Source of the DNA: an uncultured virus (IMG/VR IMGVR_UViG_3300028603_000035)
Taxonomy: Duplodnaviria > Heunggongvirae > Uroviricota > Caudoviricetes > Crassvirales
Virus record (IMG/VR): IMGVR_UViG_3300028603_000035
DNA length: 64,000 nt
Strand: one strand, 5' to 3'
Under the pieces are notes generated by a model. It was not told the DNA's origin, did not search any database, and was given only the letters and a program-made list of their open reading frames with translations. Of the stretch, positions 14,804 through 62,084 are shown one piece after another. The position numbers and the translations under genes are program-made. Each line of letters starts with the position of its first letter. Positions within the stretch are counted from its first letter, which is position 1.

Positions 14804-16608
14804 ATGACGTTAAAAATAAAATAATACCGTTATCAAAGGACACTCCGCCTATTATAGATAGTCTGGTAGCTCTTTATCAAAAGGAGCTACCTTACGACTA
14901 TAAATTAGAATGTGCCGTATTGGAACATATCTTCACAGGAACGTTACCCTATAAAGCCTTTAACCATTATATGACTTCCGATGTATTCTATTTCAAAGAC
15001 CACCAAAACATATACAAGACATACATACTATGTATCAATAAGTATAACAAATCGGATGCTGTCTTAATGAAGAAAGAATGGGAAGCAAATAAAATATCTG
15101 AAAGAAACTTCGTAGAAATATATTCCAAGATAACGGAAAAAGCTAAAGCGATAAACTCTTTAATGCTATCACAAGAAACTCTGCTATCCTATATTCAAAT
15201 CCTATACGAATTATATCTGAGGCGTAAATATATTTATTCTAATGCTTACAACTTAGATAAAGCATTTCGTAGCGATGAAGATATTTTTAATCTCTATTCT
15301 AAATCTATTACTACCTACGAAAAACTTATCAATGTAGGTTTTAAAAATAGTCTGATAGAGACATCGGTGAATAATGCAGTAGACTATATCCTCAACAATG
15401 AAAAGATAGGATATTTCAAACTACACGATGATAAATTGGCTTCTTTCATACAACTAAAACCTAATCGTATCGTATTATTCCCTTCCGACAAAGGTGCGGG
15501 CAAAACATCTTTCATATCTTGGATAGTAGAAGGACTGTTAGAATGCAATGATAACATTGCTTGCTTATGGTTCTGCTTTGAAGATAGCGTCAACGAGATG
15601 ATATATAAATTTATCTCTCGAAAGACACGTCTCTCAGTAAAACAACTACAAGGAGTAGACTATGAATTGACGGAAACAGATAAAAAGAAAGTTAATGACG
15701 TAGCTACTATTCTTAAAACTAAGAATATTCAATTCGTAGATGAAATCTGTAGTGTAGAGGAAATAAAGAAATACACGAAGAATTTCAGCGAATACTTTAC
15801 CAAAAAGAATATAGTTGTTATTATTGACAATTTTGGTCTCATTTCTAAACGTGGTCTCACAGGAGATAATATAGAGAAAGAAAAGCAAATGGTAGAAGCT
15901 CTCAATAACCTACGTAAATCCACTAACAGTTGCATCTTAATACCGCACCATATAAATAAAGCTGCAACGGAGAAAGATAACTACAATGAAGGTTATAGAA
16001 TAAGAGATAACGATGTAAAAGGAGCAGGCGAACTACTAAACTACTTCCCTCAATGTTACTCTATCATCCGTCCGGGAAAGTATACCGACGTTGCCTCTGC
16101 TTACGAAAGCAATAGGCTTAATAGAAAGTATACCGACAAACCGTCTATCAAAGATTTTGAAAAGGACATTTGGGCTATCAACCCTAATGGCGACATTGCT
16201 AATGCTTGGGTGAAACTGAACATAGTCCTTAATTCTGTAACCAAAGACGGAGACAACAATTTAATAGACTATTCTTATGTCGTTAATAGATGGCGAGAAC
16301 ATATCAACGGTATGAATAGGATAAACAACAGCCGTGATGAAAGATTTAGAAGCAAGCTAACACCATTTGCAGAATTTATAGAAAACAAAATGTATGTGAA
16401 GACTAATGATACTACATCATTGCCTTTTGATAAGTTTTACTATGGCAAGATAAAGAAAAGACCGCATATCAACAGAATGTTTATAGTCGAAGCCATACGA
16501 GACCGATATAGTGATTTCACAGATAAAGATAAGGCGGTATTCAGATACCACCACGCCTTAGAATATAACGATTTTAAACCATTATACGATGAACCGAATG
16601 ACAATTGA
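14782..16608 (+). CDS. dnaB: DnaB-like replicative helicase
   Basis: DnaB N-domain pattern (LECAVL...FYFKDHQNIY), Walker A SDKGAGKTS, FEDS, Walker B VIIDNFGLI, and PHHINK. Confidence 0.85.
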   Translation: MERPNDIDDVKNKIIPLSKDTPPIIDSLVALYQKELPYDYKLECAVLEHIFTGTLPYKAFNHYMTSDVFYFKDHQNIYKTYILCINKYNKSDAVLMKKEWEANKISERNFVEIYSKITEKAKAINSLMLSQETLLSYIQILYELYLRRKYIYSNAYNLDKAFRSDEDIFNLYSKSITTYEKLINVGFKNSLIETSVNNAVDYILNNEKIGYFKLHDDKLASFIQLKPNRIVLFPSDKGAGKTSFISWIVEGLLECNDNIACLWFCFEDSVNEMIYKFISRKTRLSVKQLQGVDYELTETDKKKVNDVATILKTKNIQFVDEICSVEEIKKYTKNFSEYFTKKNIVVIIDNFGLISKRGLTGDNIEKEKQMVEALNNLRKSTNSCILIPHHINKAATEKDNYNEGYRIRDNDVKGAGELLNYFPQCYSIIRPGKYTDVASAYESNRLNRKYTDKPSIKDFEKDIWAINPNGDIANAWVKLNIVLNSVTKDGDNNLIDYSYVVNRWREHINGMNRINNSRDERFRSKLTPFAEFIENKMYVKTNDTTSLPFDKFYYGKIKKRPHINRMFIVEAIRDRYSDFTDKDKAVFRYHHALEYNDFKPLYDEPNDN

Positions 16609-17224
16609 AGAATATAAAGAATATCAAAGGACAGGTAAGCTCCCCGTAGAAAGGGAGCTTGCTACTCCGTCTCAACCGTGGATACACCCTGACATCACTA
16701 TAGACAAGCTACGAGAGAAAGTAAAAAACAAAGAAGCTATTTACATTCCGTATAATGTACCGTCGTCGAAGAACAGCAGAGAGGTTAAATCACGTTACAC
16801 GGGATTTTCCGACTGCTGTAATAGTAAATATCAAAAATTAGGTAAAAATGTCTACAAGTGCTTAAAATGTGGCTCTATTTGCAAATTAGGAACACGTATT
16901 ATCTTAGACTATTCAAAGACATGCTACACCTACTTTGAAAATACTAAATTCTACTTCATAAAAGAAAGAAATACCTTCCATAATATGAACCTACAATATC
17001 CTGTAGACTTAGGCTTCTTTTACTTTCGTGATAGCAAGAGAATATTCGACGGCATCAATGCAGCACAGGTGCTATGCGACCAAATGGTAAAGAATGATTG
17101 GGTGAAAGACGATAATATGCAATATATACGACACCACGACTTAGGATATGAAGTAAATAAAGCAGCAGCAGGTGTTATTATAGTGCCATTAGAGATTAAA
17201 TATAAAAATTTTAAAAATAAATGA
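16589..17224 (+). CDS. RusA-like Holliday junction resolvase with Zn-ribbon insertion
   Basis: NVPSSKNS; FYFRDSKRIFDGINAAQVLCD...WVKDDN matches the RusA DxxN..D..DD catalytic pattern. Confidence 0.75.
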   Translation: MNRMTIEEYKEYQRTGKLPVERELATPSQPWIHPDITIDKLREKVKNKEAIYIPYNVPSSKNSREVKSRYTGFSDCCNSKYQKLGKNVYKCLKCGSICKLGTRIILDYSKTCYTYFENTKFYFIKERNTFHNMNLQYPVDLGFFYFRDSKRIFDGINAAQVLCDQMVKNDWVKDDNMQYIRHHDLGYEVNKAAAGVIIVPLEIKYKNFKNK

Positions 17225-17283
17225 TTAAAAGATTTGAAGCACATATAAGCCAAATGACATTATCACTCTAAACAAAATAAAAT

Positions 17284-17592
17284 ATGAAAACAAGTAAAAT
17301 ATTAAATCACTTTAAAGCAGACCTTGTAGAGACGCACCAACGTCTCTACGAACACCTGCTTGCTCACCCAAAAGGAATGTCTACCTATAAAGAAGACATC
17401 TTCTTCGCATCAGGACGTGTCAAAAGATTGGAATATTATATCTACGACAACACCATAGAAGACGTGAGAATACAAATAAGAAACCTTACGGATGAAGAAA
17501 TGGTAATAGGAGACGTAGAAGATGATATAAACATAATACAATTCTATCTGCAAGAAGCTATTAAATACATAAATAAAAAGAAAAAGAAATAA
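17284..17592 (+). CDS. hypothetical protein
   Basis: 102-aa ORF. Confidence 0.65.
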   Translation: MKTSKILNHFKADLVETHQRLYEHLLAHPKGMSTYKEDIFFASGRVKRLEYYIYDNTIEDVRIQIRNLTDEEMVIGDVEDDINIIQFYLQEAIKYINKKKKK

Positions 17593-17612
17593 TTTATGTT
17601 TTATTAATATGA

Positions 17613-17847
17613 CAGAGCGTAAAAACCACAGGTCGTTTTCGCCTGTGGGATGTAAGCGACAAAAACATTTGGTAGTTCAAATTAAAAGTTGTATGTTTGC
17701 ATTGTCAGTATAAGACATTAAAACCTCGTAAGGGACTTGCGAGTACACGTGTGGAGCGACAGTAAGACTTCTAACTCTTCGGAGCAGTAAGCAAGTTGCT
17801 GTGAAGCACGAAGCCCATTCATCACGAAGTGTGGATGGGTAGTTCAC
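17613..17847 (+). mobile_element. non-autonomous IS200/IS605-family mini-element (left end, promoter, omegaRNA/right end; tnpB deleted)
   Basis: Left-end hairpin CCACAGG-TCGTTTTCG-CCTGTGG followed by GATGTAAGCG. Right end GAAGCCCATTCA...TGGATGGGTAGTTCAC. The residual frame reads a TnpB-type C-terminal tail (GTCEYTCGATVR...VKHEAH). The exact left boundary is uncertain. Confidence 0.8.
17668..17699 (+). promoter_or_regulatory. Bacteroidetes sigma70 promoter
   Basis: TTTG (17668-17671), 20-nt spacer, TATGTTTG (17692-17699): exact -33/-7 consensus. Confidence 0.8.
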
Positions 17848-17863
17848 CAGCTATGGAACTAAA
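17705..17863 (+). ncRNA. TnpB-type omegaRNA (reRNA) scaffold plus ~16-nt guide
   Basis: Hairpins CTCGTAAG/CTTGCGAG, AGCGAC/GTTGCT, CTC-TTCG-GAG and GCCCATTCA/TGGATGGGT; pseudoknot GTGAA (17801-05)/TTCAC (17843-47); flank CAGCTATGGAACTAAA. Confidence 0.65.
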
Positions 17864-17983
17864 TATAGATTTTAAATCATCATTTAACTGACCTACTAAG
17901 ATATTTCTACGATACTTAGTAACTAAAATTAGATGACATTTTAAGTAATGTTTTGAACGATTTGTACTGATGTAGTGAGACAT
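17848..17983 (-). pseudogene. tnpA: IS200/IS605 Y1 transposase, 5' fragment (45 codons)
   Basis: MSHYISTNRSKHYLKCHLILVTKYRRNILVGQLNDDLKSIFSSIA carries the TnpA 'H.i.vtKYRr.il' motif and is cut exactly at the mini-element right end. Confidence 0.88.
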
Positions 17984-18028
17984 ATTGTAAAAGTTTTTTA
18001 CCCGAAGACGGAAACTTTTACAATATGT
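17980..18028. repeat. perfect 17-bp inverted repeat containing two divergent ATGs
   Basis: ACATATTGTAAAAGTTT / AAACTTTTACAATATGT. The left arm holds the tnpA start; the right arm holds ATG TTG, possibly the former tnpB start. Confidence 0.85.
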
Positions 18029-18101
18029 TGAACGGTATGGTATGACAAATTTACATAAAACAGCATTTTGGCATAAATTTTGATTCTTTAAAACAGTGGA
18101 T

Positions 18102-18809
18102 ATGGAAAAAATAATAGAAAAGATTATTAAATTTTTAAAAAAGAATGCTGTTATTATTATACTAACAGCAGTACTTATCATCACTGCATTACTTGCTATG
18201 CGACAATGTAGTCATAACAAACAAATAAATAAAATGCACGAAGCTATCAGCGACACCTTAAAGACATATAAGAATAAATACAACCAAGAGGTGGCACGTA
18301 TAGGCATTATACAAGCTGAAAGAAACAAAGACTTTCTAAAACTAAAATCCCAAGACTCTACTATCATAGCCTTGCAGGATTTAGTACGAGAATATAAAAA
18401 GAAAATAAAACAAGGAGGTACTGCTACTATAATAGAAGTCGAAACATTAGTACACGATACTACCCTCGTTTATTATACGGATAGTGCAATCTTCTTTTCA
18501 GACTATAATGAATGGTTAGAATTAAACGGAGAGATAAGAGACAACGTTCTTGACTATCATCTTATAGTTAATAATAAATTTAAAATGGTAACAGGAAAAG
18601 AGAAAGGAAAGCCTTTTACAGAGTTCATATCCGAAAACCCATACACGCATACCAATGTATTGCGAGTGTATCAGAATACGGGTAAGAAGAAACACTTTGT
18701 TCTTACTACAGGGTTAGGAGTGATTGGTGGTGCTGACTTATTTACAGGTAAGCCCGCTTTAACAGGAGGTGTATTCTTAGGATTAGGATGGAAGATATTA
18801 GATTTTTAA
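18102..18809 (+). CDS. membrane-anchored coiled-coil protein, putative spanin-like lysis accessory
   Basis: N-terminal TM ending LLAMRQC, coiled-coil middle, Gly-rich amphipathic beta C-terminus ending in F; function inferred. Confidence 0.5.
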   Translation: MEKIIEKIIKFLKKNAVIIILTAVLIITALLAMRQCSHNKQINKMHEAISDTLKTYKNKYNQEVARIGIIQAERNKDFLKLKSQDSTIIALQDLVREYKKKIKQGGTATIIEVETLVHDTTLVYYTDSAIFFSDYNEWLELNGEIRDNVLDYHLIVNNKFKMVTGKEKGKPFTEFISENPYTHTNVLRVYQNTGKKKHFVLTTGLGVIGGADLFTGKPALTGGVFLGLGWKILDF

Positions 18810-18854
18810 GGTTTTATTACAGTACTACTTTCAAATTTCCCGAAGGTAGTACAC

Positions 18855-18888
18855 AAAAAAGGAGGGCAAAAGCTCTCCTTTTTTTTTT
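18855..18888. terminator. bidirectional intrinsic terminator between convergent early and late units
   Basis: A-tract, GGAGGGC-AAAA-GCTCTCC stem-loop, T-tract. An extra hairpin GTACTACTTTC/GAAGGTAGTAC lies just upstream. Confidence 0.88.
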
Positions 18889-18925
18889 AGCTATAATATA
18901 GCTAATGAAAACTAATCACAAAAAT

Positions 18926-20656
18926 TTACGGTTGCTGTTCACAACTTCCTACGGTCTTTACGTATACATCTGAATATGTGTATTGCTGTATGTCGTTATC
19001 CCACACCCATGTACGGGTGTATTCGTTCAAACTACCATCTTCACATTTATAAATGATTTCTTCTAATTGTGGAGGGTCTCCGCATCTACCTACGGTCTTT
19101 ACGTATACATCTGAATATGTGTATTGCTGTATGTCGTTATCCCACACCCATGTACGGGTGTATTCGTTCAAACTACCATCTTCACATTTATAAATGATTT
19201 CTTCTAATTGTGGAGGTGTGCTTTCTGCACATTCTTCAGGGTCGGACATCTCAACAGGGTCTCCCTCGCTATCCATAACCCACTCCGTATCCCCAAAACA
19301 TTTCTCCCATACATTTACTTTTCTATACTTCTTACCTCCCTGACAGAAAAACAACACTTGATCGTAAGTCTCCCTACAGCCATTTAACACTGTAGATACA
19401 AGCGTATGCACATCTTTATAGGTGTTCTCTATAGCAGCATCAGGGTCTAATATATATGTTACCTCATAAGTAGTCTTATTACACCCATTACATAATTCAT
19501 ATGTGAAAGGTGTTACCGTAGGGGTGATGATAAGAGGTTCTTCCGACTCCTTAGTTAAAGAGAAGTTAAACTTACAATTCAAGAACTGTAAAGAGAAAGC
19601 CTTCTGATAGTAAGCATCCGTAATAGGAATAGTAACCGTGCCGTTATCGCTATCATAATCATAATTACCACTTGGCAACTCCACATTATTCAAGAACAAA
19701 CTCATATCCGTAGCATCAGGATACGGAGCTTCTCCATTCAAGCTGACAACCATATTCTCTCCTTGCTGTGTCATAGAAAAACTATACAAACAAGGAGTAC
19801 TTAACTTCTCATAAAACGAAGGACAGCCTGTCAACCTAACGTTATTATAGTTATGAGCATTCTTAATGATAAGTTGACCTTCCTCATATTTTATGTTGTC
19901 TCCGTCTATATCTACAAGCTCGCCGTCTAAGGCTATTTTCATGCGTTCTGACGATACTTCGGGAGAAATAGATATGATATATCTCCCATTAGATAAGTAT
20001 GCCCCAGAAGCCGTAGAATTGCATTCTTCTTTTATTCCTCCACCATTATAATAACAACCGTTATTCCATATCACCACGTCGTCGGGGTCGGTAACACAAC
20101 CCGGCTCTATATATATACCTCTACTGTCGTGAGTGAAACACGGTACTATACGCAACCAACCGTCCTGTCGTACATAAACAAGATACTTCTCGTAATTATA
20201 AACGTCGTTGCTGAAAAATCTATAACCCGTAAGTTCTTCTCCCGAATGAATAGGCATATAATAAAAGATAAGCTCACAGCGTAAGCCTTTATAACATTTG
20301 CTTTGCTTGCTGATAAAGTCTATCTTCTTGTCAAGCCCTTCAAAGATGTCTATACCATACCGACAATAAAGAGTGTCTCGTATACACACCAACTTATATT
20401 GAGCAAACACCTCCTCGTGTGTCCACCCCTCACCGTTGACTTCCCTTAACGATATATCCTTGCCTATGATACGTAAGTATTCCTCTAACCATAACATATC
20501 AGCAGCACGCTGTAATGACTTACATACCTTATTACGCATCACAACACCTGCAAAGACCTCCTCAACATTAAACTCATACTCGTTAAAGAAGTCTTCTGCC
20601 GATATATTTATCTTATCGTATAACGAATAGTCCTTCCATAATCCATATATCTTCAT
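18926..20656 (-). CDS. putative virion/tail-associated protein with duplicated C-terminal module
   Basis: 576 aa, Cys-rich and beta-rich; last gene of the structural operon. Confidence 0.6.
   Translation of the reverse strand: MKIYGLWKDYSLYDKINISAEDFFNEYEFNVEEVFAGVVMRNKVCKSLQRAADMLWLEEYLRIIGKDISLREVNGEGWTHEEVFAQYKLVCIRDTLYCRYGIDIFEGLDKKIDFISKQSKCYKGLRCELIFYYMPIHSGEELTGYRFFSNDVYNYEKYLVYVRQDGWLRIVPCFTHDSRGIYIEPGCVTDPDDVVIWNNGCYYNGGGIKEECNSTASGAYLSNGRYIISISPEVSSERMKIALDGELVDIDGDNIKYEEGQLIIKNAHNYNNVRLTGCPSFYEKLSTPCLYSFSMTQQGENMVVSLNGEAPYPDATDMSLFLNNVELPSGNYDYDSDNGTVTIPITDAYYQKAFSLQFLNCKFNFSLTKESEEPLIITPTVTPFTYELCNGCNKTTYEVTYILDPDAAIENTYKDVHTLVSTVLNGCRETYDQVLFFCQGGKKYRKVNVWEKCFGDTEWVMDSEGDPVEMSDPEECAESTPPQLEEIIYKCEDGSLNEYTRTWVWDNDIQQYTYSDVYVKTVGRCGDPPQLEEIIYKCEDGSLNEYTRTWVWDNDIQQYTYSDVYVKTVGSCEQQP
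18948..19216. repeat. 128-bp identical direct repeat (18948-19075, 19089-19216; period 141 bp)
   Basis: Both copies encode PPQLEEIIYKCEDG...VYVKTVG. Confidence 0.95.
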
Positions 20657-60581: not shown

Positions 60582-62084
60582 TTAATTGAATGCGTAAATG
60601 GTATTCGGATTCCAAGGTCTCTCAACGATGAAAGGAGTGTTAAGAGAGATGATACCCACTTGCCACAACATATGTACGTGCGTACCGTCTACAGACGAAG
60701 CGATGTTACCACCTTTGTCTATACCTGCTACCATACCTTTCACGCTCGGACGTAACGTACAGATAGTCTGTCCTTGTTGTCCTGCGGGAGTGTTACCTGT
60801 AGGAATAATATATCCCATCCACTCATTGCTACGGCTTCCGTCATTCAACGGTATGCCTGCACGGTTTTTGAAATGGTCGCTTTCAAGCAACACCAAACGT
60901 ATTCCTGAGAACTCATAATAGTTGTAGGTGTCTATAATGCCTGATTGCTCTCCACGTTTATACACCATATTTTGCACTTGAACGTGTTTGTTCTTACGTG
61001 CCAAGAAGCTGTTGAATGACATTTTAAGTCTACTACCGCATATCATCACTACTTCACGCAATCCTTCGTTATCGGTGCTTACATAGGGGTCTATCTCGCT
61101 CATAAACGACTCAAACCATTGGTCTGTAAAACCTTTAGATGTGATAGGAAAACGCATTGCTCCGTCGCCACTATACATTATACCGCTACCTGCTAACAAC
61201 TCACGTCCTCTTTCGTCTGTCAAGACGCATTTGTTGAGGTCTTGTGATACAGTAGTTTTACCTTCTAACAAAGCATTCTCTTGGAATTGAGCTGCTATAC
61301 GTGTCATCTGATAGTCTGCTTCGGTGATGAAGGATTGTACTCCTCCGTGTTCCATAAAATATCCGGATACCTTTTTAGCTTTGTCGATAGCCGCTGCCGT
61401 TCCTGAATACGAATATTTGATACGTTGTAAGGTAAGATATGCACGACCGATAGCTCCTGCAAAGTAACGTTCGTTACCTCTTTCGGAGAAGTCTTGCTCG
61501 TGTAGAGTGTGAATCAATTGAAACTCCATACCGTCGGCAAGCAAATTTTTGTTTACCACATCGGCATACTCTCCCGATACCAACTTAACGAACAACTTAT
61601 AAGTGTCGTTACTACTCGGTTCAGGGTCGTTGATGATAATCAACTGTGTCTGTCCGTCGGCAAGAACAATAACGTCTTTGTATCCGCTGACATTGTTATC
61701 AGTGAAAATCCAAAAACCTTCTTTCCCTTTACCGATATTATCGGCACTATTAAGGTCGTCAATATAGGTTTCTCCGTCGGCATTAGCCCTGAATAATCCG
61801 ATAGGAATATCAGCTTTCTCGATACGATACTCAAGGACATTAGAACCTACGGCTCTATACTTACCTGTGATATTACCACTCTCGTCGAAAAAAGACGAAG
61901 AATAGTTAAGACCTCTTGTCATTTTATTTTTAGACACCAAAAACGACGTCAAAGGTGCTACGTCTTTGTGTGCCGACATAATAATAGGAACATAGTCGGC
62001 ATTCATTCTTCCCAGCTCCATCAACATCTTGGAACTGATACTTTCCTGTGCCACCACCTGTGGCGTTGAATTTAATCTTTTCAT
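60582..62084 (-). CDS. major capsid protein
   Basis: 500 aa after the scaffold-like gene, with KLVSG, HEQDFSERG, GSGI and a C-terminal IASSVDGTHVHML..VGI segment characteristic of crAss-like capsid proteins. Confidence 0.82.
   Translation of the reverse strand: MKRLNSTPQVVAQESISSKMLMELGRMNADYVPIIMSAHKDVAPLTSFLVSKNKMTRGLNYSSSFFDESGNITGKYRAVGSNVLEYRIEKADIPIGLFRANADGETYIDDLNSADNIGKGKEGFWIFTDNNVSGYKDVIVLADGQTQLIIINDPEPSSNDTYKLFVKLVSGEYADVVNKNLLADGMEFQLIHTLHEQDFSERGNERYFAGAIGRAYLTLQRIKYSYSGTAAAIDKAKKVSGYFMEHGGVQSFITEADYQMTRIAAQFQENALLEGKTTVSQDLNKCVLTDERGRELLAGSGIMYSGDGAMRFPITSKGFTDQWFESFMSEIDPYVSTDNEGLREVVMICGSRLKMSFNSFLARKNKHVQVQNMVYKRGEQSGIIDTYNYYEFSGIRLVLLESDHFKNRAGIPLNDGSRSNEWMGYIIPTGNTPAGQQGQTICTLRPSVKGMVAGIDKGGNIASSVDGTHVHMLWQVGIISLNTPFIVERPWNPNTIYAFN

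Follow-up and report, generated by a model that had tools for sequence, protein, structure and literature searches.

Why would a crAss-like phage carry an omegaRNA that has its own promoter, lacks a tnpB gene and ends in a guide made of tnpA sequence? This question is raised by an intergenic locus in a 64,000-nt stretch of DNA from an uncultured virus, hereafter called the window. The guide of a TnpB nuclease consists of the nucleotides 3′ of the right end (RE) of its element, which is established TnpB biology (PMC10097598). A preliminary description of the locus had therefore proposed a guide RNA directed at transposase genes or hosts, keeping a nested insertion followed by deletion as the fallback.

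Host phage and occurrence of the locus

In Pfam searches of the window, a crassvirus major capsid protein passed the cut-off (60582-62084, minus strand; E 7.9e-9), and a CrAss tail-ring protein was matched weakly. Together with ORFs of 3374, 4237 and 2170 aa, these matches assign the window to the genome of a crAss-like phage. Of its 35 ORFs of at least 150 aa, 32 were searched, and none hit TnpB/OrfB; a tblastn search with two TnpB proteins of the family concerned gave no match in the window (best E 0.08), and profile and tblastn searches detected no TldR gene there. We obtained no blastn match in the GenBank phage collection and no match in the nearest record (G001, a 25-kb fragment), and the 237-aa phage protein encoded downstream had no relatives in the viral contigs. 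A 901-nt stretch or portions of it occurred in 20 runs from 17 studies, comprising landfill, biogas fermenter and anaerobic digester metagenomes. Four runs (X1, X3, X4 and X6) were compared, all four as assembled contigs, and X1, which carries the exact junctions of the window, may be the sample it came from.

An ORF-less element with conserved ends and a promoter-like sequence

Positions 17609-17847 (plus strand) form a 239-bp ORF-less element of the IS200/IS605 family, composed of a left-end (LE) hairpin, a promoter-like sequence, a complete omegaRNA scaffold and an RE closing in GGGTAGTTCAC (Table 1). The IS605-type hairpin noticed at the left end has the arms CCACAGG (17626-17632) and CCTGTGG (17642-17648) and sits in the frame GAGCGTAAAA(A)CC-hairpin-GGGATGTAAGCGAC, which is common to many full-length IS605-family elements; the window has one substitution in this frame (AAAAACC for AAAACCC). 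The element had been located correctly, except that comparison with other copies moves its start from 17613 to 17609 (ATGACAGAGCG...), as L036 and an X3 contig read TTTAT directly followed by ATGACAGAGCG. The pentamer before the LE is TTTAT in 90 of 118 unique LE flanks, whereas TTAAT is found in the window alone (1/118), making the left side of the element atypical. Both the LE and the RE (GAAGCCC-hairpin-GGGTAGTTCAC) are shared with L014, L018, L028 and others, and conservation ends sharply after TTCAC (17847) in 14 of 14 aligned sequences (13 viral contigs plus the window).

Inside the element, all ORFs are 56 aa or shorter, and tblastn with TnpB and TnpA found nothing, in agreement with the reported lack of a tnpB between promoter and scaffold. 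The promoter boxes are likewise exactly as described, with TTTG at 17668-17671, a spacing of 20 nt and TATGTTTG at 17692-17699, an arrangement that we take to be the Bacteroidota-type promoter consensus. This consensus has three matches in the 64-kb window against 0.83 expected, a number reached by 2 of 100 shuffles, and the boxes are retained in other copies of the element, with TATATTTG in L098, L149 and L164 and TATCTTTG in L004.

Table 1. Features of the locus, in coordinates of the window.
Feature	Position	Strand	Evidence or remark
Whole polymorphic stretch, 480 nt	17605..18084	.	Near-identical phage has an unrelated 66-nt spacer
TAM-like pentamer TTAAT	17604..17608	+	Directly 5′ of LE; family consensus TTTAT
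Left end (LE): ATGACAGAGCGTAAAAACC, hairpin 17626-17648, then GGGATGTAAGCGACAAAAA	17609..17663	+	85-90% identical to LEs of L018 (short copy), L055, L070, L083, L075
Promoter-like TTTG (-33) N20 TATGTTTG (-7), Bacteroidota type	17668..17699	+	Consensus match; kept in other copies; putative function
TnpB omegaRNA scaffold and RE	17711..17847	+	Covariance model match; structure support in 30 tnpB-linked relatives; homologous to tnpB 3′ end and RE in L014, L018
Stem A, with loop GGGAC at 17732-17736	17725..17743	+	Part of omegaRNA scaffold
GTGGAG	17751..17756	+	Part of omegaRNA scaffold
Extended helix B with UUCG loop	about 17766..17797	+	Part of omegaRNA scaffold
RE hairpin, with terminal GTAGTTCAC ending 17847	17814..17839	+	Part of omegaRNA scaffold
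Guide position, 16 nt 3′ of RE (CAGCTATGGAACTAAA)	17848..17863	+	Antisense to tnpA codons 40-45 and first base of codon 46
tnpA relic, IS200-type Y1 transposase: start codon, 45 codons + 1 nt	17848..17983	-	Pfam PF01797 E 1.9e-6; 95.6% identical over 45 aa to intact TnpA
17-bp perfect inverted repeat (19 pairs with two G-U), covers tnpA start codon	17980..18028	.	Conserved in L028, L024, L027, L036
tnpB upstream (promoter/5′UTR) region, cut 11 nt before tnpB ATG, after TTTTGAT	18029..18084	+	Alignment to L028, L024, L027, L036, L014

A complete omegaRNA scaffold

In 30 full-length relatives the sequence homologous to the scaffold overlaps the last ~40 tnpB codons and ends at the RE. For the structural comparison we used the last 125 nt of 30 distinct elements with an open frame of at least 390 codons ending in the RE; 28 further RE-bearing stretches, among 58 unique ones in total, were short or broken and were excluded. 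Across stem A, helix B and the RE hairpin, 93.1% of cells form standard pairs in the 30 tnpB-linked scaffolds, compared with 34-48% when the partners were slid by 1-3 columns as a control. Compensatory (two-sided) changes occur in 15 of 21 pairs, and the covariation score was reached by none of 500 shuffles. A covariance model built from these relatives gave a single match in the window, at 17711-17847 on the plus strand (68 bits, E 2.3e-16, model positions 1-131 of 131). With the same model the short copies score about 41-81 bits, the bare RE hairpin of L003 28 and the tnpB-linked L018 121. These scores and the full coverage of the model indicate that the window scaffold is diverged but complete rather than decayed, which answers the concern that a covariance model might expose it as a decayed copy and upholds its description as a full scaffold. 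Within the match, stem A and the RE hairpin pair normally, and the outer pairs of helix B beside its insertion are non-standard. Rfam gave no match at gathering score in the window, its hits being at chance level (E at least 0.7).

The pseudoknot first assigned to the scaffold, GTGAA with TTCAC, fared less well: it is paired in 85.3% of cells in the relatives and every departure is a break. By comparison, the GGRAC loop of stem A and GUUC at -6 to -3 pair in 98.3% of cells and show no changes other than wobble-preserving ones, although the invariant 3′ strand makes two-sided covariation impossible. In the window, the loop GGGAC (17732-17736) can pair with GUUC at -6 to -3. The GTGAA/TTCAC assignment is thus probably mistaken, and a GGGAC/GUUC pairing, assigned by analogy with ISDra2, would fit better. 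In the ISDra2 omegaRNA, the pseudoknot pairs -5U to -3C with -103 to -105 and not with the nearer partner first predicted (PMC10097598).

In ISDra2 the functional scaffold measures 116 nt, and the 5′ part is dispensable (Nakagawa et al, 2023; PMC10097598). With about 137 nt, the short element covers this minimal scaffold and retains slightly more. Other likenesses to the ISDra2 TnpB-omegaRNA complex (8h1j/8exa) concern the TnpB of the relatives (E 5.9e-80 between that of L028 and 8h1j), the location of the scaffold, which coincides with the tnpB 3′ end and the RE, the sequence G-U-U-C-A preceding the guide, and a stem-loop on the 5′ side whose GGRAC could form the same pseudoknot. In contrast to ISDra2, the putative TAM is TTTAT rather than TTGAT, helix B has an extra UUCG-capped extension in the window subfamily, and no tnpB is present in cis.

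Full-length relatives of the element

An exact RE 25-mer was found in 13 viral contigs. Five of these viral records were checked, and two of the five carry TnpB genes (4 and 2 matches), one with three Y1 TnpA matches. L014 is a tnpB-only element with a window-like LE frame, a 400-aa tnpB with its TAG stop codon within GGGTAGTTCAC, and an RE that terminates in TTCAC. In L018, the LE is followed by a tnpA in opposite orientation, the intergenic hairpin, a 398-aa tnpB and the RE; a second element at that locus is a short deletion derivative with an LE hairpin resembling that of the window. The TnpB proteins of L028 and L014 contain OrfB_IS605, TNB and HTH domains (Pfam). In bacterial genomes a gapped LE pattern retrieved 76 stretches, mostly from Bacteroidota (Sphingobacterium, Chitinophagaceae, Flavobacteriales, Algoriphagus and others). 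An exact 20-mer of the RE hairpin variant of the window was absent from 185,579 species genomes, a result that concerns this hairpin variant only, since the LE pattern finds those 76 stretches.

TnpB genes have been reported in epsilon crAss-like phages (PMC11054128). One 93-kb viral record rated 100% complete (G002, the record of L002, L014, L016 and L018-L022) contains four TnpB and three Y1 TnpA matches as well as short derivatives from this IS family; for a phage, such a transposon load is unusually high. In an RNA-library contig (X3 record 11), two elements stand in tandem, the right end of one being followed by 13 nt ending in TTTAT and then by the left end of the next copy; this contig may represent DNA or read-through.

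Short copies at other sites

Other short copies were found at L098, L149, L164, L167, L154, L281, L283, L005, L004, L006 and L001 and on one X4 contig. Pattern scans contributed to this set as follows: among 80 loci with DNA matching the promoter-junction pattern, 6 are such elements and 74 are unrelated, and the scaffold pattern gave seven loci, two of them new. Eight other loci belong to the subfamily of the window, each with different flanks, and run X4 adds one further flank; there, a scaffold copy with one mismatch in 128 nt lies at another site and has the same flank as L281. L098, L149 and L164 share the layout LE, TTTG-N20-TATATTTG, scaffold and RE, with TTTAT on the left and unrelated sequence on the right. 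The same layout is seen in L004, from a more distant subfamily, while L167, L154 and L283 are partly truncated. The same architecture at many sites with unrelated guides identifies the promoter and scaffold design as a family trait of a mobile mini-element. A tnpA adjoins 1 of the 12 short ORF-less copies at different sites, namely that of the window; within 1.6-2.5 kb around each of the other copies, TnpA or TnpB was found near 0 of 11.

Several of these loci have further peculiarities. The stems of the RE hairpin differ (CCCATTCA.., CCCATTTG.., CCCATTGG..) among L098, L149, L164, L154 and the window, whose promoter and scaffold are nearly identical, and the LE and RE stems within one element are often unlike, which suggests that end hairpins are exchanged as modules. 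One copy lies between phage tRNA-Val and tRNA-Leu genes (L005, 2334-2525) and another upstream of seven phage tRNAs (L001, 2501-2800). In L003, L009 and L012 (2501-2545), the last 39-45 nt (RE hairpin and TTCAC) occur alone in an 80-nt gap between two genes, either as a solo right end or as a hairpin reused as a terminator-like element.

The guide position and its target in intact tnpA genes

The sequence that follows TTCAC is, as first described, the antisense strand of a truncated tnpA, so that the guide position is filled with tnpA sequence (Table 1). The region 17848-18084 corresponds to one contiguous piece of the full-length elements L028, L036, L024 and L027 (92-94% DNA identity). Its 17980-18028 hairpin is the normal tnpA/tnpB intergenic hairpin of a full-length element and gives spurious miRNA-like Rfam hits.

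A protein search with the 53-aa open frame returned 66 viral loci, of which the closest 19 were examined; a 133-codon open frame is present in 16 of these 19. Intact tnpA genes of viral contigs read TTAT followed by CAGCTATGGAACT... in antisense, and ATTAT stands directly before the equivalent of 17848 on the antisense strand at 11 of the 19 closest tnpA loci. The check proposed earlier, for a TAM beside the target, thus found a TAM-like motif, although the tnpA target site has ATTAT and not the family motif TTTAT. The 16-nt guide matches with at most one mismatch at 4 of the 19 loci (L025, L026, L029 and L030) and with at most two at 7. In the intact tnpA of L025, L026 and L030, TCTGAATTAT is joined to CAGCTATGGAACTGAA, and the same joint between TCTGAATTAT and 17848 is found at a loose end in run X1. 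No exact 18-mer of the guide or junction was present in the viral contigs. TTAT next to the target in intact tnpA implies insertion at this point by normal TnpA targeting, with the guide as a by-product of the landing site. Since a TAM-like motif is expected from TnpA insertion, it provides no independent evidence of purpose.

Recent replacement of an intergenic spacer by a polymorphic composite

In the metagenome contig L089, identity to the window reaches 99.4% over 16200-17604 and 98% over 18079-19145, and 66 unrelated nucleotides stand in place of the 480 of the window. In X4 record 16 and X6 record 23, 17558 is connected to 18085 by 113 nt, and RNA-library contigs carry the empty-site phage variant plus IS pieces. 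In the conservation check proposed earlier for related phages, near-identical phages lack the 480-nt composite; the mini-element itself is present at many other sites. Its absence from near-identical phages indicates that the composite is a recent, polymorphic replacement of an intergenic spacer and is not fixed.

Phage DNA, and not the remainder of tnpA, flanks the mini-element on the left, which requires at least one additional rearrangement after the nested insertion. The right junction (TTTTGAT/TCTTT) falls after a TAM-like pentamer. For this junction and the left flank we considered microhomology, aberrant TnpA excision and recombination between two mini-element copies. One route would need a single illegitimate junction, namely recombination of a phage mini-element copy with a copy nested in tnpA elsewhere. 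A single rearranged element (circular permutation) was also considered and is ruled out, as the RE end adjoins the TTAT target site precisely.

The neighbourhood shows three other peculiarities. At 18029-18104 the tnpB upstream region of the IS fragment now adjoins the 5′ leader of the phage gene 18096-18809, in place of the 66-nt native spacer of L089, and this gene may now be driven by the tnpB promoter of the transposon. At 17210-17215, contigs of X3, X4 and X6 break at 17211/17214-17215, the loose end in X6 being an IS605-family RE (…GGGTAGTTCAC) that adjoins 17215 after TTTAA; this junction marks a second polymorphic insertion of the IS605 family in relatives of the window phage, lacking in L089 and the window. 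At the equivalent of 17589-17604, L089 (reverse strand) has TAGTTCAC directly before GTTTTAT at the end of a 102-aa ORF, where the window has TAATTTAT; TAGTTCAC equals the terminal 8 nt of the family RE, followed by a TAM, and could reflect either an old footprint or chance.

Discussion

We consider it very likely that the locus is a protein-free PATE/MITE of an ISDra2-like IS605 family that was mobilised by TnpA into the tnpA of a full-length relative, acquired an incidental guide there and was later rearranged. The anatomy and homology of the element, its conserved scaffold structure, the target motif in intact tnpA genes, the multiple copies and the absence of the composite from near-identical phages make up the observed basis of this reading. 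The element is non-autonomous, with the ends of a family common in Bacteroidota and their phages, a Bacteroidota-type promoter and a minimal omegaRNA scaffold. Its occurrence at multiple sites, together with a near-identical copy elsewhere, points to mobilisation by TnpA in trans. It would have transposed into the antisense strand of tnpA, directly 3′ of TTAT, which would leave 16 nt of tnpA in the guide position by accident of insertion. A later rearrangement would have spared only the middle of the host element (17848-18084), from tnpA codons 1-45 through the intergenic hairpin to the region upstream of tnpB, and the composite now stands in place of the 66-nt intergenic spacer of the crAss-like phage. 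If the promoter fires, the RNA may load TnpB from another element, the window having none, and the loaded complex could cut unoccupied tnpA alleles or the empty site of the element itself, following the ordinary homing and retention logic of TnpB. The nested insertion with subsequent deletion that had served as the fallback is therefore the explanation favoured by the junction, homology and empty-site evidence.

Several alternatives have to be weighed against this. That the element has lost transcription and mobility, and that the composite is neutral debris heading for deletion, is conceivable but unlikely. The absence of the composite from the nearest relatives, the atypical TTAAT and the substitution in the LE frame, the model score of 68 against 121 bits for L018, and the lack of a complete tnpA and of any tnpB in the window would all suit an inert scar. 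However, both promoter boxes match exactly, stem A and the RE hairpin are paired, GGGAC can pair with GUUC, only the outer helix B pairs are non-standard, and the X4 scaffold copy, which has a single mismatch in 128 nt and lies elsewhere, speaks for recent mobility within the subfamily. Two other readings assign a purpose to the guide. The element might be a hyperparasite of its own IS family, whose promoter-driven omegaRNA steers the TnpB of autonomous elements to uninterrupted tnpA genes with TTAT and a 16-nt match, for homing or destruction; we regard this as very unlikely. A dedicated anti-transposon or competitor-cutting device, a guide RNA kept by the phage that cuts or silences intact tnpA with TnpB or TldR of the host or of a co-infecting element, is to be considered highly unlikely, although the guide has at most one mismatch in 16 nt in 4 of the 19 closest alleles and at most two in 7, ATTAT precedes the target in 11 of 19, the scaffold is complete, the promoter exact, and a family residing in Bacteroidota genomes and phages means that TnpB could be met in trans. 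Against these points, the TAM beside the target follows from the insertion mechanism and adds no evidence, tnpA adjoins 1 of 12 short copies with neither TnpA nor TnpB near the 11 others, the exact junction is absent from all other viral contigs searched, near-identical phages without the 480 nt mark it as recent and not fixed, and no tnpB or TldR gene was found in the window. The anti-transposon or host-cutting role initially proposed is thus not borne out; we found no further support for it, or for a hyperparasitic role, beyond this single polymorphic instance.

The orientation of the locus also invites a regulatory reading. IS200 is controlled in its 5′ region by an RBS-sequestering hairpin and by the antisense RNA art200. 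Here, too, the tnpA start codon lies within a strong hairpin (17980-18028), and a mini-element transcript would be antisense to the tnpA 5′ region; unlike in IS200, the hairpin belongs to the host element and not to the omegaRNA, and the antisense layout is an accident of one insertion. Such a transcript, which would continue past the RE for 136 nt complementary to the 5′ part of tnpA mRNA, might repress related tnpA mRNAs in trans. The orientation suits this reading, the 136 nt share 92-94% identity with live tnpA genes, and no terminator is predicted between the RE and the hairpin. Nevertheless, the local tnpA is a dead 45-codon stump and the other copies have no tnpA downstream, so that the arrangement again appears as a by-product of insertion, and we hold this to be the least probable of the readings.

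Gene-less PATE-like elements occur in Geobacillus stearothermophilus, and PATEs often encode omegaRNAs that need TnpB in trans (Meers et al, 2023; PMC10055086). The ISGst PATEs and the mini-element both combine the LE and RE of a TnpB-bearing IS family with the lack of a protein gene and with an omegaRNA that would need TnpB and TnpA in trans. They differ in that the mini-element resides in a crAss-like phage, belongs to a Bacteroidota IS family, has a consensus promoter directly before a minimal scaffold and is nested in a tnpA relic. The guide RNAs of phage TldRs are similarly phage-borne, of TnpB type and with a fixed target, but TldR loci have an adjacent nuclease-dead TnpB homologue and a conserved host-promoter target (Wiegand et al; PMC10705468). 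Here, there is no TnpB-like gene in the 64-kb window, and guides differ at every copy. A limited literature search found no report of a mini-element nested in tnpA. The locus is best read as an ordinary case of nested insertion, involving an element of a kind described before, and not as a dedicated anti-transposon device.

The tnpA-directed guide illustrates that nested insertions automatically yield guides against the parent element, although one polymorphic instance does not establish a function; if the hyperparasitic reading were true, a carrier phage would disarm or cut IS-bearing competitors and hosts. More generally, an apparently active ISDra2-like IS605 family has colonised crAss-like and other phages of landfill and anaerobic digester communities, in which it occurs in full-length, tnpB-only and protein-free forms. 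The protein-free form, trimmed to promoter and minimal scaffold, gives a natural hint as to which part of the omegaRNA stays without coding constraint, and the family supplies natural combinations of TnpB, omegaRNA and TAM (TTTAT) as a ready set.
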